A stretch of 63,771 nt of DNA, filler included, from Stramenopiles sp. TOSAG23-2 (taxonomy: Eukaryota): the NCBI GenBank assembly GCA_900128395.1. It is 24 parts of 24 records of this genome, joined end to end, with 100 filler letters (N's around TTAATTAATTAA, not from the genome) between each part and the next. Parts side by side here need not be neighbours in the genome. Positions count along the whole stretch, not along the records: positions 50,661 to 53,204 come from LT651663.1; positions 53,305 to 55,848 come from LT651664.1; 22 more parts are not named here. The stretch is one strand, 5' to 3'. The translations under genes and the position numbers were made by a program. Of this stretch, positions 2,755-55,532 are shown piece by piece. Each line of letters opens with the position of its first letter. The stretch's first letter is position 1. The notes below the pieces were generated by a model. The model worked only from the letters and a program-made list of their open reading frames with translations. It searched no databases and was not told where the DNA came from.

Positions 2755-3065
2755 CCTTTCGTCTTTTTTAATATGAACACAGCAGGGGCCTTTTCGTCTT
2801 TTTCGTTATGAACACAGCAGGGGCTTTTCGTCTTTTTCGTTATGAACACAGCAGGGGCTTTTCGTCTTTTTCGTTATGAACACAGCAGGGGCTTTTCGTC
2901 TTTTTCGTTATGAACACAGCAGGGGCTTTTCGTCTTTTTCGTTATGAACACAGCAGGGGCTAAATCCGTTTCTGTTATATGAACACAGCAGGGGCTAAAT
3001 CCGTTTCCTTTTATATCAACATAGCAGGGGCCTTTTCGTCCTGTCGCATATGAACATAGCAGGGC
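2755..3065. repeat. 34-35 bp minisatellite, about 9 copies
   Basis: Unit ATGAACACAGCAGGGGCTTTTCGTCTTTTTCGTT at 2773, 2808, 2842, 2876, 2910, 2944, 2979, then degenerating. Confidence 0.92.
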
Positions 3066-4021
3066 AACACTAGAGATAGTTGCCATGCTGCATCATGCTG
3101 TCCTGACTTTAGCAATAGTGCACTATACTTGTGTGGTAAAAAAAAAAAAAAAAAACAAAAAAAAAACAGTATGCGTAAAAAAATAAAGGTATTATAAATA
3201 AAACATATAGGAAGATGTCAATAATGATTCATATGTATGCAACGAGGAGTGTGAAGTCTCCACGCTTTAACGTATATTGTAAAATATATAAATAGGATAT
3301 ATATATATATACCATATATCTTGTATATGGTATATGTATGTTAGGAGTGATTACAACCACTATCATCTATTTGGTACATGTTATGGCATCCTTTAAATTT
3401 AATGTAAATAAATATATGTATTATAATTTTGATACTAAAAAAATTTTCCAACTTGTGTTATATCTGCAAAATTAAGTTGTCAGGTTTTTTGGCATCATAT
3501 GTTGTACTTAAAGAGTACTAATATTCGTAACCTATCATTCGTGTCCAGCATTTTTTACCAGCCCTATCAAAATATCAAGTCTTTTTATAGTCTTAGAAAA
3601 TAGTTATCTGACAACTTAATGAAAACCGAATTTCTTGCTCTTCAACAAATATTGCGCTGATGTATTATTTTTTTTTTTATTTTTCCCACTTGCCCTACTG
3701 GCCTACATTTATATTTTAATTTACGATTAAAATAACGTTTGCGACAGCCAATACACAATATCGTATACATCGATACAGCACAACACTATCACACACTATA
3801 TATGAATGGATAGTACAGTAGTACTATACTTAATACTGTACAACAACGCATACGATATTACACTACGCCTCGACTACAATCAGAAAACCAATATCCCCTA
3901 TGATATTAAGCAATTGATATCAAACTGCCAAAACCCTCCTTAACTCCAACGAATTCCATCGCTGTGCCACAACCCCCAATCCAGACCTAATGCAGGGCTC
4001 TCGCCGTACGGCAATTTTTTT

Positions 4022-5357: not shown

Positions 5358-5590
5358 GCATGAAAAATTATCGTCGGACCAAAAGATGGAAAAAGGATAT
5401 TTATCGTTCGATAAAATTGTTCTAAATTTTGGGAATCTGAAAATCGACGTATGGAAATCATGATAGTATTGTTAAGTTCCATAGCTATGAGAGTATTCTA
5501 TTGTATTTTATATTTTTCGGATATGTTTATAGTATATTTTCATATATCCCAACAATATGGAAAATTAGTCCCAACGATAATTTTTCATGC
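5358..5590. mobile_element. MITE-like element with ~26-bp terminal inverted repeats
   Basis: GCATGAAAAATTATCGTCGGACC at 5358 versus GTCCCAACGATAATTTTTCATGC ending 5590; right end repeated at 6171-6229. Confidence 0.65.
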
Positions 5591-6676
5591 GATATTTTGG
5601 CCTCAATACTATTCCCATGCTAATTATCGTTGTCAGGTCAAAAGTGCATTTTCCGTAGTGTTGTAGGAAACAAGTACAAAATATTCATATCAAAAACATA
5701 ATATCAGAATTTGATCACTTATTTTAGCTTCTAATGAATTTTAATTTTAAAATACACACTTTATTTCTGAAAAGTTTATGATATTTTATTCACCCTCAAA
5801 ATGACAATTAATACCAATTGTATTGATATATTTATAAAAACTCCCTCTTGGTAATTACCATATTTCAGATCACCTACATACTTCAAACGTTCAACTACAC
5901 GAAAATGTTCCTTCGCAAATGGTCAACAATGGTTATTGGTTTTGCACTTTTGCTTCTTCTTGTATAAAATAGCACTTTTTTCCTAACTGGTGGCTATCGT
6001 GGTATTGGCGCTCAAAAAGTCAAATTGTTAGACGACAATAACATTAGTAATCGGAATTGGATTTTATTAGCAGGGAATTATGCTTTGATTATCGGTAAAT
6101 TGTTGCCTTAATTATTTCTATATTTGGAAGGTTGGTTAAGGGCTTTGGATTAGTTGGGAAAGTTTTAACAGTATATTTTCATATATGCCAAAAATATGGA
6201 AAATTAGGCCCAACGATAATTTTTCATGCGTATGATTGATTGAATTAACAATACATAGTATAGGGAAAAATGCAACTGTTGCCTATCTAGTACAAATTAG
6301 CATGTGATAAACATTGCTTAGATAACATAGACTCAGGATTAAGGTGCCTTAGATAATGGGATTACACTAGTAATATTTATTTTATATCATGCTAGTGGAA
6401 TTCTATAGTGTGCTGTTTTAATTTCCGTAGATCGTAACAATAATTTTATGCATCTGAAATTTCAAAAAGGTATTTTATTAAAATTTATCGCTCCATATAC
6501 TCTCATTAGTAAGTTAGTGTCATTTTATAATAATTTAATATGGCATTTAGCTTATAATGCACACTTTCGTAACACATATCATTTCCATCTCATTCCACGG
6601 TACACCTTTCAAGCTCAGAAATTCCTAAAACGATAAGTAGACACATTGATGAAATTTACAATCCATAAAATAATAA

Positions 6677-7759
6677 TCAGCATTTCTGCACCTCTCTCAA
6701 CGCAACGTTATAATCATTATGCGACGGGCGATCAACCCCAGGAACCCACTCATTTATTGGTTTATCCGAATCTTGACGCAGGCGAAAGAAATAAAAGGGT
6801 ATAAATGAAATTTTCGCGTTCTCACTATCTAACCACGTTTTATAAATTTTTTCGACATTATTGCTATTACTATACATTTTCTTATCGCGCCCATATGCCG
6901 TGCACAAATCTGGGGTAGTAAAATACAATGAAGCCGCATCCCTAGAACCGAGAAAAAAGCGGTCATTATAACCACCCGATGATCGCCACGACGGCAAATA
7001 ACACACTCCACTTTTTTTGAGGGAAACATTTGGAAAAGGTAATACATACACAACATCCATGCGAATCCAAATATACCATTTGTGGGAAATATTGAATTTC
7101 TGTTCAAACGAAAGCACTTCTTTGTATACCTCATTCTTGTATATATGTTGTGCATTAGCTTCACCATAAAAATCGAAAAGCATTTTCTCCTTGGACCATC
7201 CCTTAAATCGTTTATTGTCCAACGACGATTCTCGCATTTTTTCGTGGCCATGGAGAATATCACTGAGGCATTTCTGATTTGCCTTAGGTCGATTTCTTTT
7301 CTTTACAACTACGCTATGAAAATGTCGCCACTGCGATAAGAAGGTAACATCATTGGCATTGGAAGTGTTCTCGATAACAGAGAAGAAATTAAGTTTCAAA
7401 TTTTGTCTTAAAAGCTCGCCGAACACATATTTTTTAATAGAACAGTGAGTTCGTGATAGACTTCTAGTCTGATGAGACGTTAATACAGCTACGAATTCTG
7501 CCCTATCCTCTCTCGTTTCCACATTAATATGATCTGGTATGGTTGGCAGTCCTTCTCTTGAATAAAGGTCGGTGTTTTTTTTACTGGGGGTTTGAGGTAG
7601 ATGCGTTGTCCGCGTATCATTTGTACTACTTAAAGGCAAAACTTGCGAAAAGTGGGACATATTGAATTTGCCGTTGACACTTTTGTGAAAATTGTAGAAA
7701 AAAACATGCAAAGATATTAGGGCAAAAAATAAGAAAATTGCAAATATTTTCAACTTCAT
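6677..7759 (-). CDS. Type II membrane protein, putative glycosyltransferase-like
   Basis: N-terminal TM anchor and stem, then WYIWIRMDVV and GGYNDRFFLGSR (RxD and NDxF motifs). Confidence 0.65.
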   Translation of the reverse strand: MKLKIFAIFLFFALISLHVFFYNFHKSVNGKFNMSHFSQVLPLSSTNDTRTTHLPQTPSKKNTDLYSREGLPTIPDHINVETREDRAEFVAVLTSHQTRSLSRTHCSIKKYVFGELLRQNLKLNFFSVIENTSNANDVTFLSQWRHFHSVVVKKRNRPKANQKCLSDILHGHEKMRESSLDNKRFKGWSKEKMLFDFYGEANAQHIYKNEVYKEVLSFEQKFNISHKWYIWIRMDVVYVLPFPNVSLKKSGVCYLPSWRSSGGYNDRFFLGSRDAASLYFTTPDLCTAYGRDKKMYSNSNNVEKIYKTWLDSENAKISFIPFYFFRLRQDSDKPINEWVPGVDRPSHNDYNVALREVQKC

Positions 7760-8431
7760 TGTTTCTTAACTAATGCAATTCTTGTAATCTTTATATCGAG
7801 TAGATGCGAGACTGTAATGAATACTTCGGAATAATAAATTCCAGAAAATTTGAACATAGATTTCGCCCCCAATCAAGGAATTTTGGCACTATAGCTGTTA
7901 TTATCAGCCTTTGATTCCAATTTTGACNNNNNNNNNNNNNNNNNNNNNNNNNNNNNNNNNNNNNNNNNNNNTTAATTAATTAANNNNNNNNNNNNNNNNN
8001 NNNNNNNNNNNNNNNNNNNNNNNNNNNAATTTTCCATATTTTTCAAATAGACGTTCCAATATAGTATTATCTTCTTCCGTAAGGGACGACAATGTCGTAC
8101 ATGCTTTCTTGTTTGATGATGATGATGCCATTCTTTTATTATTTATATATATATATATATATATACTATTTTTCAATGTATATATATACTGTACTACTAA
8201 TATATATAGTTTCTATATTTTTCTATTTTTATTTTAATTCAAAATTCAATTTATTTCACCATTTCTATATAATAGTCATTTATTTTGGGCAATCGCAATA
8301 TTCCCTTAAACTATAATAAACAACGTTACTTTAATTGGCATTTAACTTTTATGGACCCAGCTAAGTCCGGAGACTCAACCGGATGTGCTGTCCACTTCCA
8401 CTCACTCTCACTTAACAATCAACAAAACAAA

Positions 8432-8752
8432 AAAAAAATTTTGTTTTCTAATCCACTTAATACCTAAATATCTTTCTCAACATCCTATAAGATATTAAAA
8501 CATCCCTAACCTCTTCTCTGTGTATGTAAAATCCCTCTCTAAACATTTATTTAATCTAGTGATAATCAATTTATTCCATAACTAATATTTGTCTGTTACC
8601 TCCAACTTATTCCAAATTCCTCCTCCTAACAACTCAAAGTCCTAAATTCGATGGCATTAACATAGCACGTTGATCGACTACAGCACATGTATACTCCGCT
8701 ATATAATACCTCCTAATCTAGGCTCCTAAATTCTCTATCAAGTCTTCTGCAT
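8432..8752. repeat. Left arm of ~320-bp inverted repeat
   Basis: Reverse complement of 10280-10600. Confidence 0.92.
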
Positions 8753-9592
8753 ATTTATGATATTTACAAGCCCTGAGAGCATTTCAACATGAAGTTGACG
8801 AGTAACGTGTACGCGGGTCATTGTTATTTTTCCAGAAAAACCATAAAGCAATACATCCTTGTATTTTCCTTCTGTTATCTCAATCGCGGATCCACTTGCT
8901 GTATCGTTTAAATTCACATTTAAACTGATTGGCAAATTCTTTGTAAAATCAATTTTAATAGAAATAAAACATCCACAATAATATTGGCCTGCTGATCCTA
9001 TCCCTTCAGTGTAATTTTCTTCAGTCATCACCAATGAATTTATATAATTTTTTGATTCATATTTCCAATATTCATTATCATTTGCAGACTGATATGCGGC
9101 AACGACCAGATTGCAATGGCTTAACGTTATGTTAAAGTTTTCTTTTTTTGCCATACTTCCTTCTTGTAACTTACAAACATCTTTTGCTAGATCAGCTACG
9201 ATACCATATAACAAAAAGACTATTCCAAGCAATATTATTATACGATCGCATCGAATCAAATACATAATAATTAATTTCATTAGCCTGTCTGTTTTCTTTT
9301 TCACTTCGGCCACATCAATATTTTTTACATTTTCCATTAATTTCACATTATCCAGATTTTCCATAATTATACTTTTACGTTTTACGGGTCTATTTTTTGT
9401 ATTTGCTTTTTTATCTTTTTTCTCATTCTTTACTTTGGCAGCTTTTCTTACCTGCAGATTATTATCGTTTATACTAACATTATGGTTGACTTTTACTTCG
9501 ACTTTTCCAGTAGCTGATAGAACATTTGGAGAGATTTTGGTTTTTGCTGGAGATGATACTTTCGTTGATTCGTTCTTCATCTTTGGACACAA
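8738..9592 (-). CDS. Hypothetical single-pass membrane protein, apparently truncated by the inverted repeat arm
   Basis: 284-aa ORF with TM IIILLGIVFLLYGIVA; last codons MQKT* lie inside the repeat arm. Confidence 0.7.
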   Translation of the reverse strand: MCPKMKNESTKVSSPAKTKISPNVLSATGKVEVKVNHNVSINDNNLQVRKAAKVKNEKKDKKANTKNRPVKRKSIIMENLDNVKLMENVKNIDVAEVKKKTDRLMKLIIMYLIRCDRIIILLGIVFLLYGIVADLAKDVCKLQEGSMAKKENFNITLSHCNLVVAAYQSANDNEYWKYESKNYINSLVMTEENYTEGIGSAGQYYCGCFISIKIDFTKNLPISLNVNLNDTASGSAIEITEGKYKDVLLYGFSGKITMTRVHVTRQLHVEMLSGLVNIINMQKT

Positions 9593-10279
9593 TGTAATTG
9601 AATTTTTTTTTTCCCTAGACTATCTACAAAAATGCACAAATAACTAAGTTATTGATATTTTTAAGTACAATTCTTTGATTATTCTTGTTTTGGTATATAT
9701 TCAATGTTATGTATAGTGTATATTATGTGATGAAACGTTTGTTTATATATTAGGACGATTTATTATTATTGTATTATTACATAAATTACTTTGTGTATAG
9801 GTATATACGCTAAAGCAATATAAGGATGAATGGTTATAATGATCATGTTGCGTGTTTACTTACTTGTGAAACATGTACAGTAGTCTACATATATATTTCA
9901 ACTATAGACGACTATCTACGCAGTTACATGTGTGGGAACCAGCAAACCAGCAAACTATACTACCGTAGGTCAACCAGGCCAGGCAGGACAACAACAAAAG
10001 TTGGAAGTTAAGAGAAGATGCTTCCTTGCTGGCCAGCTGGCTTGCCACTTGCCAGCTTGCCTTCCAGCCTTACCAGGTATATTAAATGTCTGATGCAATG
10101 CTATTCCCCTGCTATTACTTGCAATACGCCTCTTCCTTGTAAATGAGAAGGATTATTAATGAAATTAATTTTATGATATTTTCCAACATCCAGATGCAAT
10201 CAGGATCGCTGGAAAATATCTCAGTTATTTTAAGTAGCAGCAGTATTGCCATATGGACCTGGATCGATGCTTGTGTAAC

Positions 10280-10600
10280 ATGCAGAAGACTTGATAGAGA
10301 ATTTAGGAGCCTAGATTAGGAGGTATTATATAGCGGAGTATACATGTGCTGTAGTCGATCAACGTGCTATGTTAATGCCATCGAATTTAGGACTTTGAGT
10401 TGTTAGGAGGAGGAATTTGGAATAAGTTGGAGGTAACAGACAAATATTAGTTATGGAATAAATTGATTATCACTAGATTAAATAAATGTTTAGAGAGGGA
10501 TTTTACATACACAGAGAAGAGGTTAGGGATGTTTTAATATCTTATAGGATGTTGAGAAAGATATTTAGGTATTAAGTGGATTAGAAAACAAAATTTTTTT
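10280..10600. repeat. Right arm of ~320-bp inverted repeat, runs to contig end
   Basis: Reverse complement of 8432-8752. Confidence 0.92.
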
Positions 10601-11177
10601 NNNNNNNNNNNNNNNNNNNNNNNNNNNNNNNNNNNNNNNNNNNNTTAATTAATTAANNNNNNNNNNNNNNNNNNNNNNNNNNNNNNNNNNNNNNNNNNNN
10701 CGGTTTTGCAATTTGAGGGAAAAGAAGCACTTCATTTATTTTTTTAAAATTTTGGCACCTTAATCCACATAATTATGTGGATTTCACGCTTAGAGGATAG
10801 CTTTAGTAAGCATTATGTGTGGAAATATATTATTATAACATGGAGATAGTACAGGTAATTCTTATGACAGTGAATCCGGGATAATGGGTCTTTCAATCTT
10901 AATCACTTATCATCTGTAATTGTTATAGTACTTATACTGTGTACGTGATTTTATTATAGAATCTAGTGATAGCGATAGCCAGGGCCCATCAGATCAGCAG
11001 ATCAGGCGGGCCCGTCAATACGATATTTGATAGTTGATAGTTAATATAGTTGTTTAAGTATACTAATAAATTGTACCGGATTTTACTGTGGTTGTTTTTT
11101 CTCTGGTGGATAACCGCACATACCAGATAACAAACAAACAACAACTACTTTCGAATGATGTAAGTACTGTATATTAT

Positions 11178-11463
11178 ACTAGATCGCCGCATTAATAGAT
11201 GTATCAGATAATATATACATTACTAAGAAACATTTGTAAAATAGAAACACAAACAATTTAGTAATTATATATATATAAACATGGCATTGGTTGGTATACC
11301 GATACGGTTATTGCACGAAGACTAGATCGCCGCATTAATAGATGTATCAGATAATATATACATTACTAAGAAACATTTGTAAAATAGAAACACAAACAAT
11401 TTAGTAATTATATATATATAAACATGGCATTGGTTGGTATACCGATACGGTTATTGCACGAAG
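11178..11463. repeat. 143-bp tandem duplication covering the SmD3 upstream region and first 13 codons
   Basis: 11178-11320 equals 11321-11463; ATGs at 11281 and 11424. Confidence 0.95.
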
Positions 11464-21983: not shown

Positions 21984-23611
21984 TCATATATTATTATCAT
22001 TATCACTAGTAGTATCATAACTACCTTTTTCTTCTTCTTGCATTACAGTAATCAATTCAATGCATTCACCTTCTCCATCGATGTCATTATTATTATCATT
22101 ATTGTCGTCTATATTATTATTATTATTTTGTATTTTATTTTTTTTCAAGTAATTTAAATTTAAATTAGGATTCAATTTTCTTGTATGTTCATAATCAAAA
22201 TTCCATATTAATTTACTTTTACATAATGGACAACAGCAGTGATCTATATAATTTGATTCCATTAAAAACCAATTTTCGATACATAAAGAACAATATGTAT
22301 GATCACATAATAAAGTTCGAACATATTTACCAGCTAATGATTCTAAACATATAGAACAACTTCCTTTGTTTTTCATTTGCAACTTATCTTTTTCATGATT
22401 CATATAATATTTCGGCATATTTTCGTCAATCATTGCCAAATCTATTTTCAATAATTCTATTTTTGGTTGTCTCCTCCTTCCACTCCGATTACTACTTTGT
22501 CGATAATTATATTGTTCATATTTACAAAAATAAATAATTCGAATATACTTACTTGTCAATAATTTATTTAAAGTATGCCATGATAGCATAACATTTAATC
22601 CAACAATAAAACTACCAACAAAAACTAAATCATTTCTATTTTGTGTTTTACAAGTCGATGTTTCATTAATACTTTCACTAATTCCATAAAGTAAACAAAT
22701 TGTGCTCATGATATGAATGAATGTTAAACTAAAATTTGTTATCGGAATATTATTACTGTTATTGTTATTGTTTCTTCTTCCATTCTTAATAACTAATTTC
22801 ATTACTAAATACGAATTCAATATTAAAAATAGTATAAAAGTAACAAAAGCAAGTATTGGTGGTGCACATTCTACAAATAAGATCACGATTATCAATGATA
22901 TTATAAAGATACATACAATTAAGAATTTGTAACATTTCATAAATTGTTGCAATTCACAAAATCTAGAATATCTTCTTATTGATTCTTCTTGTTGCTGTTG
23001 TCGCTGCTGCAGCTGTTGTTCAGTGATCACAACATTACTATTATCATTGTCATTATCAGATACATCTTGGTTTTTATACCATATAAAACCTTGTAATATG
23101 CTATTTGTAAATACATTAACTATAATCGACGGGACAGTGAAATGATTAATCAATATATAAGATTGTTTTTCTAGAGAAAGGATGTAAAAATTTTTTGACT
23201 TTTCCACATTTTTCCCGTATAAAAAAACAAAATTATCGCTAGAGATAATCAAACCAACAAATATAAATGCAATAATTGGCAAATGAATCACAGTTGAAAT
23301 TAAATTGACGTCTTTACTTTTTTGACAAAATTTCCTAGNNNNNNNNNNNNNNNNNNNNNNNNNNNNNNNNNNNNNNNNNNNNNNNNNNNNNNNNNNNNNN
23401 NNNNTTTCCTACAATTAATAACTTGATATGTTAACAACATAAGAATTACAGTTAAGAACGCGAAAAAGATTGATAAATTAAAAAAAACTAGTAATTCACA
23501 CTCATTATACACATTACCACGACAGTTTGAACCTTCAAAACAAGTTTGCATCTCAGGTGGTGGGCATCCTTCCATCCCACCAGTTAATAGTCTACTGCTA
23601 ACATTATACAT
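21984..23611 (-). CDS. Multi-pass membrane RING-finger E3 ubiquitin ligase
   Basis: Several TM segments and CSICLESL...CDHTYCSLCIENW...CPLCK; the 23339-23404 gap looks like a false gap because TAGGAAA overlaps both sides (VINCRK|FCQKSKD). Confidence 0.8.
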
Positions 23612-46158: not shown

Positions 46159-46838
46159 TTTAGTCAGTATTATTTTTGACTTTTGTAAAAGAAGATCAAT
46201 GAAAGAATAAAAAATGATATAAAATTTATTCTTTCTTTCTTTCTCCTGAGTATATATATATAATATATATGATATTTATATGTTTTGTGTTCTAATTAAG
46301 CTAATGTGTCATGTAACGATTAAATTTGTCACAGTTTGCCTTAGTATTTTTAATGCCTGCTATTTCAGTATTAATAAAATAACATTGCACAGTATGGGGG
46401 AAATCGCATAAGCGAAGAATTGAAAAGTATATCGAGAATTGAAGTAATATGATAAAAAAGTAACATATTAATATATGTGTTTTTCTCTTACTCATATGTT
46501 ATATAAAATTCTTTTACTCCNNNNNNNNNNNNNNNNNNNNNNNNNNNNNNNNNNNNNNNNNNNNNNNNNNNNNNNNNNNNNNNNNNNNNNNNNNNTCTCT
46601 TACTCATATGTTATATAAAATTCTTTTACTCCCGTTTACAATTTTATAATATATACTATACTGTGTATAATAGCACGATAATGCACATATTATTATCATA
46701 TATAGACGACTAATAAATTATGTTATACTAACACCAAAGATATATTATTTTTTAATACTCGTATCATCACACTAAATCTTATTGATTATATTTCACAAAA
46801 CATAAAAAATTTAATATTTTTTTTTTTATGCATACTTT

Positions 46839-50560: not shown

Positions 50561-51793
50561 NNNNNNNNNNNNNNNNNNNNNNNNNNNNNNNNNNNNNNNN
50601 NNNNTTAATTAATTAANNNNNNNNNNNNNNNNNNNNNNNNNNNNNNNNNNNNNNNNNNNNTACAAATATTCGATGTTAGTTTGGATCAATTACAAATCAG
50701 CATATATAGAAGAGAAAAAAGATTATTGATTGATCACCACGATTTACATTTATTTACTTACAGACTAAAATCATATTGATCAAATCAATATATCATATCA
50801 AGCCAACAAAGTACATTATAATACAAACAATACAATGATAATAAACAAATATCACATAATACAAATATTCGATGTTAGTTTGGATCAATTATAAATCAGC
50901 ATATAGAAAAAATTATTGATTGATCAACATCAATTTACATTTATTTACTTACACCCTAAATCATATTGATCAAATCAATAACATATCAAGCCAACCAAGT
51001 ACATAAAATGACAAATAATACAATGATTAAACAAATCACATAATACAAACATTCGATGTTAGTTTGGATCAATTACAAATCAGCATATAGAAGAGGAGAT
51101 TATTAAATGATTGATCAACATCATTTACATTTATTTACTTACAGACTAAATTCATATTGATCAAATCAATAACATATCAAGCCAACGAAGTACATTATAA
51201 TACAAACAATACAATGATTAAACAAATCACATAATACAAATATTCGATGTTAGTTTGGATCAATTACAAATCATCATATAGAAGAGAAAGAAGATTATTG
51301 ATTGATTGATCAACATCATTTACATTTATTTACTTACTTTCTAAATCATATTGATCAAATCAATAACATATCAAGCCAACCAAGTATATTATAATACAAA
51401 TAATACAATGATTAAACAAATCACATAATACAAACATTCGATGTTAGTTTGGATCAATTACAAATCAGCATATAGAAGAGCAATACAATGATTAAACAAA
51501 TCACATAGTACAAATATTCGATGTTAGTTTGGATCAATTACAAATAAGCATATAGAAAAGATTATTGATTGATCACCACGATTTACATTTATTTACTTAC
51601 AGACTAAATTCATATTGATCAAATCAATAACATATCAAGCCAACGAAGTACATTATAATACAAACAATACAATGATTAAACAAATCACATAATACAAACA
51701 TTCGATGTTAGTTTGGATCAATTACAAATCAGCATATATAGAAGAGAAAGAAGATTATTGATTGATCAACATCATTTACATTTATTTACTTAC

Positions 51794-51862
51794 AGCCGCA
51801 TTACCTGATACGACACTGTTACTTAAACTCAGTGTACCACCGTCTATAAAAAATCCTCCACC
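51794..51862 (-). CDS. 69-nt phase-0 exon encoding one Pmp-like / right-handed beta-helix repeat (GGGFFIDGGTLSLSNSVVSGNAA)
   Basis: Preceded by CTAAC..AAAAG, followed by GTAAGT; exactly 23 codons with no stop; GGGxxI..GGTLxLxNSxVSGNxA pattern. Confidence 0.85.
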
Positions 51863-52301
51863 CTTTTAATACGTATATATAATGTTAGTTTGGATCAATT
51901 ACAAATCAGCATATAGAAGAGCGAAGTACATTATAATACAAACAATACAATGATTAAACAAATCACATAGTACAAATATTCGATGTTAGTTTGGATCAAT
52001 TACAAATCACCATATAGAAGAGATTATTGATTGATCACCACGATTTACATTTATTTACTTACACCCTAAATCATATTGATCAAATCAATAACATATCAAG
52101 CCAACGAAGTACATTATAATACAAACAATACAATGATGAACAAATATCACATAATACAAATATTCGATGTTAGTTTGGATCAATTACAAATCACCATATA
52201 GAAGAGAAGATTATTGATTAATCAACACGATTTACAATTATTTACTTACATCCTAAATCATATTGATCAAATCAATAACATATCAAGCCAACGAAGTACA
52301 T

Positions 52302-52540
52302 AAAATACGTTGTATAAACCAATTGTACGAGAAACGCGTAAATTTAATCCATTGAGAATACCAAAAAAATTAGAACGAGCATTGCCATATAAAACTAAAC
52401 CAAAAGTCAATAAAAAGAAACGTAAAAACAATAAAACGAGCGAATTGTCTAAAGCAACTGCCGTTATTATGGAGCCAAAAGAACGTAAAATGTATACCAT
52501 GATGCAACAATTACGTACCGTTCGTAATGTGAAGACAAAA
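52302..52540 (+). pseudogene. BMS1: Captured fragment of the BMS1 ribosome-biogenesis GTPase C-terminus inside an array intron
   Basis: NTLYKPIVRETRKFNPLRIPKKLERALPYKTKPK...AVIMEPKERK; no ATG start and both ends fused to repeat sequence. Confidence 0.85.
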
Positions 52541-54011
52541 TAATACAAATATTCGATGTTAGTTTGGATCAATTACAAATCACCATATAGAAGAGAAGAA
52601 TATTGATTTATCAACATCATTTCCATTTATTTACTTACATACTAAATCATATTGATCAAATCAATAACATACCAAGCCAACGAAGTACATTATAATACAA
52701 ACAATACAATGATTATAAACAAATCACATAATACAAACATTCGATGTTAGTTTGGATCAATTACAAATCAGCATATAGAAAAGATTATTGATTGATCACC
52801 ACGATTTACATTTATTTACTTACACCCTAAATCATATTGATCAAATCAATAACACATCAAGCCAACGAATCACATTATAATACAAACAATACAATGATGA
52901 ACAAATATCACATAATACAAATATTCGATGTTAGTTTGGATCAATTACAAATCACCATATAGAAGAGAAGATTATTGATTGATCACCACGATTTACGTTT
53001 ATTTACTTACACCCTAAATCATATTGATCAAATCAATAACATTATCAAGAATAATACAAATATTCGATGTTAGTTTGGATCAATTACAAATCACCATATA
53101 GAAAAGATTATTGATTGATCACCACGATTTACATTTATTTACTTACACCCTAAATCATATTGATCAAATCAATAACATATCAAGCCAACGAAGTACATAA
53201 AATANNNNNNNNNNNNNNNNNNNNNNNNNNNNNNNNNNNNNNNNNNNNTTAATTAATTAANNNNNNNNNNNNNNNNNNNNNNNNNNNNNNNNNNNNNNNN
53301 NNNNCACTGCTATTATTATTATTACTATTATTATTATTATTACTATCACTATTATTATCTGGACGACTATTAGAAGAAGACTTTGGTACGTCAATGGTTA
53401 ACGATGCCATAATCAATGTTTATTATTGTATGTATAATATATATAAATAATATATATATATATTCTTGTATATCTGGTAAGACGAAAGAAGAATTAAATA
53501 AAAAATCAGTTGGTTAAAACTGAATGTATCGGATGACTTGTTCTTTCTATTCATATATATGTGTATATATAGAGAGAAATCTGTTTATTTAATATATTTA
53601 TTATTTTTTGTATTTGTTAGTAAAAATGCAATGATAATACGTGTTATTTATTGATGATCAGGTTGTTTTTATGTTTTCCTCATCATTTTAATTTTTCGTC
53701 ACAAACAAGGTGGAATTATAAGTACAGACGTTAGAATACCATATCTATGACATTAAATTCCAATTTGAATTTAATTCCAAAAACACCTTAAAAATAAAAA
53801 TCTTTAAAAATCACCCACACCAAAAATAAAAATATATATCCTTTTATCAAATGAAATAAAGAGAGGCACACACAGAGGTATATATTTTCATTTTCAAACA
53901 ACGTGTTACATTATATTCAATATAAGAAGTAACACAGATCTCCAAAAGAAAATATATTTAAAAGCGTTGATTAAGATACATTCATAAATACAAGTCTGTA
54001 TAAGAACGATA

Positions 54012-55532
54012 ATGATGATTAATACAATACGACAAAAGATAAAAAGTGCCATGTCTTTCCAACTTGGATATAATAACAAATTATTGCCATCAGCAATAAT
54101 TTCAAAGAAATCAATATCAACAACTACTGTAGCATGTAGTAATAATAATAATAAGTCATCTTCTCATATTAAAACAACATTTGAAAAGAATGTAATGGCG
54201 ACATATGGAAGATTTGATATTTGTTTAGATCATGGGAATGGTACATATGTACATGATGTAAAAGGCAAGAAGTATTTAGATATAGGTGGTGGTATAGCTG
54301 TAAATGCATTAGGACATGCTCATCCAGAAATTGTAAAAACAATCCATGAACAAGCATCAAAACTTATACATTGTTCCAATTTATATTATACTGAATCACA
54401 AGGCAATTTAGCAAATCGTTTGATTGAATATTTAGGTGAAGATGGCAAAGTTTTTTTCAGTAATAGTGGCGCAGAAGCAAATGAAGGTTTATACAAATTA
54501 GCACGTGCATATGGCCAAGAGTCAAAACGACATAAAATTATTACTGCAACGAATTCATTTCATGGCCGGACGTTAGGTGGAATTGCAGCTACAGGACAAG
54601 ATAAAATAAAAAAAGGATTTTATCCAATGATCGATGGATTTGACCACGTGCCATTTAATGATTTAAATGCAATGGAAAATACTATTGATGATCAAACTTC
54701 TGCTATTTTAATTGAAGGGATACAAGGGGAAGGTGGTGTAACACCAGCAACACCAGAATATCTATTAGGTTTACGAAAATTATGTGATGAAAAAAATATT
54801 TTATTAATGTTTGATAGTGTTCAATGTGGTCATTTTCGATCTGGTAGATTTCAATCTTATCAACGAATTTTAGAAGATATTGAAAATACATTTCAACCAG
54901 ATGCTATTTCCATGGCTAAATCATTAGGTGGCGGAATACCAATTGGAGCATTTTGGGTAAAAGAGAAACATAGTTCATTACTTAGTGCTGGTATGCATGG
55001 TACAACATATGGTGGTAATCCATTATCATGTTCCATTGCTTTGACAATCTTAGATGTGTAAGTATGAATCTGAGTTTTAAAAAAGTATCTTTTTTATTTT
55101 CTTTTAAGCTTTCTCTTTTTCACTTCATGTCTATATACATGTATATCTAACATTTTGTTTTTATTTTTTTTCATATGCAGTATTGAAAAGGAAAATTTAG
55201 AAGAAAATGTACGTAATGTTGGAGATTTTTTTCTAAAAGAAATTGGAGAGAATTTACAAAAAATATATCCAGAAGTAATTGATGGTATTCAAGGTATGGG
55301 TTGTATGTTGGGTATACGTTTAAAACAAGCAAATGAAATCCCACGTTTTTCAAGACATTCAGAAACAACCTCTGCAATTCAGTTTGTCAATGCATTACAT
55401 GATGTAGGTGTATTAACTGTACCAGCTGGTGAAAATATTGTTCGTTTATTACCACCATTGAATATACAAAAAAATGAAATGAATGAAGCATTAGATCATA
55501 TTGAAACCGTTTGCAAAATTAGTATGGTATAG
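54012..55532 (+). CDS. argD: Acetylornithine aminotransferase with transit peptide; intron 55058-55180
   Basis: YLDIGGGIAVNALGHAHP, FFSNSGAEANE, SFHGRTLG, QGEGG, MAKSLGGGIPIGA, HGTTYGGNPL; a GTAAGT..CTAAC..TGCAG intron joins LDV|IEKENL in frame. Confidence 0.93.

Follow-up and report, generated by a model that had tools for sequence, protein, structure and literature searches.

What, if anything, is encoded by a tandem array whose near-identical units look like introns and are separated from one another by single codons? The question is raised by contig LT651663.1 of Stramenopiles sp. TOSAG23-2 (assembly GCA_900128395.1), which occupies positions 50661-53204 of the 63,771-nt stretch of DNA analysed here (the window). 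The initial annotation took it for part of a gene that builds a peptide loop one residue per exon, from 3-nt exons lying between cloned introns. The anatomy of the array, the intron signatures of its units, the recurrence of its layout, 3-nt spacing included, in an independent metagenome contig (L001), its linker position at the boundaries of protein coils and the variability of its triplets make this the best reading of the locus; inclusion of the triplets in transcripts and, above all, the 2^n splice patterns envisaged for them are predictions. From the sequence we consider it probable (roughly 0.6) that the product of the locus is a beta-helix surface protein and that chains of one-codon exons, lying between cloned introns, encode the loops that join its coils. 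We infer both that the triplets reach messenger RNA (mRNA) and the manner in which the array grew.

Intron-like units and the triplets between them

On the minus strand each unit starts with GTAAGTAAAT (12 of 12), every GTAAGT donor being followed by AAAT; eleven acceptors of the form (A)TTT(T)AG are present, and the gap from acceptor to next GTAAGT is exactly 3 nt at 11 of 11 junctions. These counts bear out the initial annotation, as does the order of the triplets, GGT, GGT, GGT, TAT, GAT, GGT, then the 69-nt exon, then TCT, AAA, TCT, GGT, TCT (Table 1). Of the pattern AGNNNGTAAGT the window has 12 occurrences against 1.1 expected, all but one lying within the array, and 12 was reached by none of 100 shuffles. 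ACTAAC boxes number 14 on this strand, the core being internally duplicated in two units. The unit length of ~185 bp proposed at the outset fits 7 of the 11 donor-to-donor segments (185-195 nt), and Tandem Repeats Finder reports periods of 187-191; length is not uniform, however, since the segments range from 136 to 389 nt, those of aberrant size being explained by a deletion, by internal duplications of the branch core, by the 69-nt exon or by a 240-nt insert. Both contig ends fall within a repeat unit, so the counts of six and five triplets on the two sides of the 69-nt exon are lower bounds. This exon is flanked by an AAAAG acceptor and a GTAAGT donor; the unique tail of the intron that precedes it puts ACTAAC ~20 nt upstream of the acceptor, as in an ordinary intron.

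Donors, branch box, acceptor and exclusion of AG, all the sequence marks of a working spliceosomal intron, support the view that each unit would function as one. GTAAGT donors (12/12 in the window, 6/6 in L001), TTTAG-type acceptors (11/11 and 5/5), a branch box and an acceptor at the first AG place the units, by their sequence, with U2-type introns. AG occurs 25 times in the 2245 nt of array intron sequence, against 107 expected from composition, and all 25 belong to splice sites (GTAAG donor or acceptor). The interior of the consensus unit has none, compared with ~7.4 in shuffles (P 5e-5); the interval from box to TTTAG is AG-free, and the first downstream AG is the acceptor. The seven standard units depart from their consensus by 45 substitutions, none of which creates an AG, where 6.5 would be expected (P 7.5e-4), and the units of L001 by 24, again with no new AG against 3.7 expected (P 0.019). 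The absence of AG among the 45 later substitutions implies that it was selected against after the copies arose, as scanning from each branch point to the first AG would predict. An ordinary intron on a neighbouring contig has a TCTAAC box, with AGs upstream of the box and none in the 33 nt to the acceptor. No intron with the pattern GTAAGT..ACTAAC..AG at ordinary spacing was found in the whole window.

The triplets differ from the introns around them in their variability. Mean diversity per column (pi) is 0.07 among the seven standard window units and 0.065 among four units of L001, whereas triplet positions 1 and 2 reach 0.57 and 0.71 among the window units, which ranks both in the top 6 of 187 columns, and 0.67 and 0.50 among those of L001. 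We infer that the arrays are either old, with introns homogenised and triplets kept apart, or young, with triplets changing ~8 times faster than introns; either age would point to the triplets mattering. That no triplet is a stop codon, also put forward in the initial annotation, is true and carries no meaning, because no stop codon ends in T and 10 of the 11 array triplets do. Counting L001, T stands at position 3 in 15 of 16 triplets, compared with 11 of the 23 codons of the 69-nt exon, a bias that suggests constraint beside the donor.

Table 1. Coordinates of the array and its parts in the window
Feature	Position	Strand	Remarks
Whole contig	50661..53204	-	2544 bp, 26% G+C; ~13 cloned intron units, 11 single-codon spacers, one 69-nt exon
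Candidate micro-exon GGT (Gly)	53147..53149	-	
Candidate micro-exon GGT (Gly)	53011..53013	-	
Candidate micro-exon GGT (Gly)	52824..52826	-	
Candidate micro-exon TAT (Tyr)	52639..52641	-	
Candidate micro-exon GAT (Asp)	52250..52252	-	
Candidate micro-exon GGT (Gly)	52063..52065	-	
69-nt phase-0 exon	51862-51794	-	One 23-residue beta-helix coil, GGG start, SGNAA end
Candidate micro-exon TCT (Ser)	51601..51603	-	
Candidate micro-exon AAA (Lys)	51338..51340	-	Sole triplet not ending in T
Candidate micro-exon TCT (Ser)	51143..51145	-	
Candidate micro-exon GGT (Gly)	50953..50955	-	
Candidate micro-exon TCT (Ser)	50762..50764	-	
Standard intron unit	52827..53010	-	184 nt; GTAAGT donor at 53010, ACTAAC at ~nt 76-81 (from 52935), interior AG absent, TTTAG; ~27-nt terminal arms complementary
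Intron preceding the 69-nt exon	51863..52062	-	Unit 5' part, second branch-core copy, unique 3' end
Example junction hairpin	52780..52870	-	Unit 3' arm and next unit 5' arm; -22.5 kcal/mol, z -3.7
BMS1 C-terminus fragment	52304..52543	+	Open, 79 codons, antisense in unit 52638-52253; E 3.5e-12 to human BMS1 in 7mq8_SI

A second array and the coils that it separates

An exact scan of the JGI (Joint Genome Institute) metagenome contigs with the 28-nt core of the unit gave one match, L001, of 14,009 bp. Its minus strand carries an intact gene: from an ATG at 3932, a first exon of 406 codons starts with a hydrophobic segment that reads like a signal peptide and ends ...MILTNGE; an array of 1397 nt follows, with six GTAAGT donors, five acceptors each 3 nt before the next donor (5/5) and the triplets GGT, TTT, GAT, GAT, TAT; and a second exon, open for at least 439 codons, starts GGGLYV and contains IPT/TIG domains (PF01833, E 7e-23). 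The array thus lies between two long in-frame coding exons, not outside genes as a satellite would. Its AG content is low here too, 14 against 67 expected, the only two outside splice sites falling within the first intron, in its unique 5' part, and the last intron runs for 404 nt without AG up to its acceptor. Window and L001 units differ at many fixed positions, so that L001 represents another organism and not the same data seen twice. The 3-nt spacers, 16 of 16 in the two arrays together, and the start of the L001 gene, which resembles a signal peptide, are features of the kind found in micro-exon genes (MEGs). Both arrays have one arm of the unit missing at an end, either the 5' arm from the first intron or the 3' arm from the last; the repeated module is therefore one of 3' half-intron, triplet and 5' half-intron.

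The unique 5' part of the first intron (L001 2461-2714, minus strand) is recognisable in the relatives P0014, P0015 and P0018, whose read-through peptides beyond the coil end are alike. Its conservation among relatives implies that an intron at this coil boundary predates the species split. The neighbours of the gene on L001 are uninterrupted frames, one of 461 codons (5441-6826, plus strand) and one of 1384 codons (7293-11447, minus strand) with a DEAD/SNF2-type helicase region. L001 may be cellular, or may come from a large intron-bearing marine virus. Intron-rich marine mirusviruses have been described (PMC12768974) in which the branch consensus is WCTAAC and a single gene can have as many as 50 introns. 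Neither a 23-nt core nor a relative of the L001 gene was found in a collection of viral contigs. Short proteins were searched for junction-spanning transcript fragments with residues 1-100 of L001 exon 2, and nothing matched; a search with the whole of exon 2 gave only open-reading-frame calls that start within the exon.

HMMER found 25 relatives of L001 exon 1. Among 17 of these, about a dozen are open-reading-frame calls that continue from ...GE, or from a slightly different coil end, into V-S..., which is read-through of a GTAAGT intron at the same phase-0 site. Uninterrupted relatives have amino acids at the corresponding place: P0016 has linkers of 5-6 residues between its coils, and P0020 and P0032 have 2-3 at the same first junction. 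P0031, which is genomic since it comes from an 85.9-kb ENA contig, has at residues 117-260 five to six coils of 23 residues nearly the same as the 69-nt exon, joined by unrelated linkers of 5, 2, 9, 3, 9 and 1 residues rich in S, Y, G, N, D and R. Linkers in these four proteins are thus of 1-9 residues and G/S/Y/D/N-rich, and the residues that the triplets of the two arrays would encode are G (6), S (3), D (3), Y (2), F and K. The 69-nt exon of the window corresponds to exactly one coil, and L001 exon 1 stops exactly at a coil end. As the large exons stop and start at coil boundaries, they hold no linker residues, and it is the linker position that the arrays occupy. P0031, with its near-identical coils and unrelated linkers, could be a processed copy of a micro-exon gene.

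We measured the spacing of coil starts at 1244 junctions in 122 proteins, namely 119 that match the P0031 coil region plus P0031, P0016 and P0032. The mode is 26; a period of 23, which is to say no linker, was found 10 times (0.8%), so rarely that direct joining of 23-residue exons would be atypical, and linkers of 5-6 residues would yield the ordinary periods 28-29. The fold is probably that of a right-handed parallel beta-helix of the Chlam_PMP kind (PF02415, PF13229), judged by homology to members and by the three-strand coil. The P0031 coil region matches 907 proteins at E <= 1e-5, and many among the 120 listed carry PF02415 or PF13229; Atlas leads scored 0.82-0.87. An AlphaFold model of P0031, made with no alignment, is usable in the coil region only (pLDDT 60-82 there, 43 overall), where it places three strands in each 23-residue coil and makes both 9-residue linkers low-confidence loops.

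We propose that the gene belongs to an uncultured, AT-rich marine protist and that its product would be a secreted or surface right-handed beta-helix protein, with one exon for each 23-residue coil and, for the variable linker, a chain of single-codon exons amid near-identical introns of ~185 nt. The units, each equipped with a strong donor, a branch box and a first-AG acceptor, would be removed in succession, leaving one loop residue each time. The chain would have grown by unequal recombination or slippage of the module, the centre of which is a 27-bp palindrome; unequal exchange between the shared cores of two adjacent introns would amplify it. More tentatively, and as something we think rather doubtful, the modules might serve to vary the surface loops residue by residue. 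Two routes are conceivable: a single gene would yield numerous isoforms if its phase-0 donors and acceptors, being many and equivalent, were used alternatively, or unequal recombination of identical introns would add, delete and shuffle codons among loops, paralogues and strains.

Junction hairpins, sequencing runs and competing explanations

The arms at the two ends of a unit are complementary (17 nt at 82% by repeat search; ~27 bp in the fold), and in the tandem array the tighter pairing joins the 3' arm of a unit to the 5' arm of its neighbour, which makes each junction the centre of a palindrome at the DNA level. Four 91-nt segments centred on junctions form hairpins with energies from -18 to -27 kcal/mol (z -2.4 to -5.4), and for three of the four no shuffle among 200 was as stable; the acceptor AG, the triplet and GTAAGT lie in the apical loop or at its edge. 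Folding of the whole unit revealed no extra stability over shuffles (z -1.1), the terminal or junction stem alone being notable.

Such hairpins would mask internal acceptors, and so favour a compound intron: an ancestral intron amplified in tandem, with the array excised whole from first donor to last acceptor, perhaps aided by hairpins that draw it together, the triplets unexpressed and the coils joined without linker. The final intron of each array does have a distinct 3' end, all joins are in phase 0 and skipping is therefore frame-neutral, and inclusion of triplets was not seen in RNA runs X15 and X17. Internal donors and acceptors are nevertheless invariant and AG is excluded from every unit, and not just ahead of the last acceptor, where unused sites would decay at the average rate of the intron; the linker-free coil period that such splicing would produce is the one found at only 10 of the 1244 family junctions; and the excess variability of the triplets over other loop and intron positions would go unexplained. 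We think excision as a single intron unlikely, though it is the chief rival.

Complementary arms are also what a mobile introner or miniature inverted-repeat transposable element (MITE) would have, that is, a small terminal-inverted-repeat transposon carrying splice signals and inserting beside itself, with the triplets as target-site or filler nucleotides. Loose ends in run X1 show parts of the unit beside other sequence, and introners are reported to be common in aquatic protists, according to the portion of PMC9860276 at hand. However, no copy is present in the other 23 contigs of the window (~59 kb) or elsewhere in the 14 kb of L001; the 28-nt core is in one JGI metagenome contig and the 23-nt core in no viral contig; no direct repeats were seen flanking single units; and a single target hit repeatedly should give identical triplets, not GGT, TAT, GAT, TCT and AAA. 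An origin by serial insertion is thus improbable.

The long terminal stem might, alternatively, belong to a small RNA carried by each unit of an intron-borne non-coding array, as in host genes of small nucleolar RNAs (snoRNAs), with the codons as in-frame spacers. The introns are indeed more conserved than the "exons", and L001 units contain a motif, GTGATGA, which we take to resemble box C. The terminal stems of snoRNAs are far shorter than that of the unit, though, and a box D-like end is absent; Rfam gave no match at E <= 1 on either strand of the array, the whole unit is not unusually stable when folded, and neither the position of the arrays at coil linkers nor the loop-like residues would be explained. 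We give this idea very little credence.

Sequencing runs bear on whether the layout exists in a genome at all. The share of the contig found was 0.32 and 0.25 in two very small DNA runs of one organism, 0.17-0.20 in marine metagenomes from several studies and 0.08-0.10 in RNA runs. A mis-assembly or amplification chimera of the repeat, with a layout absent from the genome, would be in keeping with a contig that ends in repeat, in a very fragmented assembly, with the small size of the two best-matching DNA runs, and with the failure of the runs to confirm an antisense gene fragment. On the other hand, unitigs of X1 and of the seawater metagenome X3 cover 23 and 22 of 30 bins, the 69-nt exon included (51790-51872 in X1); each AG-NNN-GTAAGT junction requires spanning reads; and the same layout stands in the intact open gene of L001, from a different organism. 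We find artefact scarcely credible as an account of the whole. At 51839, a loose end in X3 leads to variants of the 69-nt coil exon, either paralogues or alleles, whose acceptor context is not the same, so that the organism or its relatives have several such coil exons.

The antisense fragment, the 240-nt insert derived from the gene for the ribosome-biogenesis protein BMS1, has edges without splice sites and adds three AGs to its intron on the minus strand. Pfam gave only a weak DnaJ match, below threshold. The insert is uncovered in X1, and X3 has only traces of it, from a relative's true BMS1 gene that continues into unlike sequence. It may be an amplification or assembly chimera, or a recent disruptive insertion.

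Several observations weigh against splicing of the triplets one by one into a beta-helix gene. Transcript support for the triplets is absent in the two RNA runs searched: X15 gave only a 33-nt low-complexity match within the BMS1 insert and X17 nothing, a result that speaks neither for nor against transcription. Under a 31-letter rule no triplet is bridged among the 17 unitig pieces listed, and both the order of the units and their number come from a single short-read contig. Because every duplication also copied the 3-nt spacing, the 16 junctions cannot be counted as that many separate events. Between the main ACTAAC box and the acceptor there are ~100 nt, whereas the only ordinary intron that we examined has ~33 nt, and this makes the units unusual introns; the acceptor region, if held in a hairpin stem, could suppress internal sites; and the unit with the BMS1 insert would mis-splice if the insert is real. 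Lastly, Pfam found neither PF02415 nor PF13229 in the 23-residue exon (E <= 1) or in P0031, P0016 and P0032 (E <= 0.01).

As to its surroundings, the window is made of 24 unrelated contigs of ~2.5 kb, ordered by size from 2577 down to 2540 bp and joined by the separator N44-TTAATTAATTAA-N44 (for example at 2578-2677, 50561-50660 and 53205-53304), features on opposite sides of a separator being unlinked; two other runs of N, at 23339-23404 and 46521-46595, are gaps within contigs. An ATG at 53408 and the intron at 55058-55180 of an aminotransferase-like gene (argD), the latter cited earlier for its similar splice signals, are on other contigs and have in common with the array only the assembly; the connection is an artefact of concatenation. 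Other contigs of the window contain, at 11178-11463, an exact tandem duplication of 143 bp and, at 2757-3031, six copies of a 34-35-bp tandem repeat.

Comparison with known systems

The initial annotation knew of no described equivalent, which is too strong: schistosome micro-exon genes and single 3-nt exons are known. The schistosome MEGs, in the excerpts of PMC10526429 available, encode secreted proteins from symmetric exons of 3-81 bp, and their variation is attributed to alternative splicing; the array resembles them as part of what would be a secreted-protein gene with very short symmetric exons. Their introns are long, up to 5 kb, and in the same excerpts are not described as clones of one another, whereas those of the array are near-identical tandem copies of ~185 nt. 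A MEG consists mostly of micro-exons; in the array every micro-exon would be a single codon, and micro-exons would replace only the linkers between 23-residue coil exons. The array, moreover, is in a marine protist and is known from DNA sequence alone.

Individual 3-nt exons have been described in MAP4K5, Drosophila homothorax and RPS24, spliced normally and in some cases alternatively, and RPS24 has three consecutive micro-exons of 3, 18 and 22 bp (PMC12207440, as far as the accessible text goes); clusters of micro-exons are also reported from plants in the abstracts at our disposal. The known 3-nt exons are isolated in long unrelated introns, unlike the chains of 3-nt exons between cloned introns proposed here. 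Introner-like elements, in the available part of PMC3609843, are near-identical spliceosomal introns, longer than regular ones and with stable predicted structure. They are dispersed over many unrelated genes, whereas our unit was found, in the small sample searched, only in tandem and in linkers of one gene family; its inverted terminal arms are present, and no target-site duplications were seen by reading. Local tandem duplication that includes splice signals is a described way of making extra introns (PMC4974935, in the portion consulted). Those gains are single events; the arrays comprise at least 5-6 successive modules of one codon each, in two organisms. In the accessible parts of the literature on micro-exons, introners and intron gain, tandem chains of single-codon exons between cloned introns are undescribed, though the supplementary tables of PMC12768974 and PMC9860276 might hold cases.

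If the triplets are spliced in, this would apparently be the first gene to build whole protein loops from consecutive one-codon exons. It would offer a natural test of how the spliceosome handles chains of 3-nt exons, would reveal duplication of an intron-codon module as a route by which a protein lengthens residue by residue, and might mean codon-resolution diversification of a surface protein in an abundant, uncultured marine protist. Gene finders are unable to call such exons, and similar genes would consequently be mis-annotated systematically.

Two further systems share elements of this arrangement. Recursive splicing makes stepwise use of an acceptor and a donor that lie side by side, and its ratchet points leave no exon sequence behind; in Dscam-type clusters alternative exons diversify a surface protein, the exons being full-sized and mutually exclusive. 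The array would be like the first in its stepwise sites and, if it diversifies the protein, like the second, but would differ from both in that its exons are of one codon.

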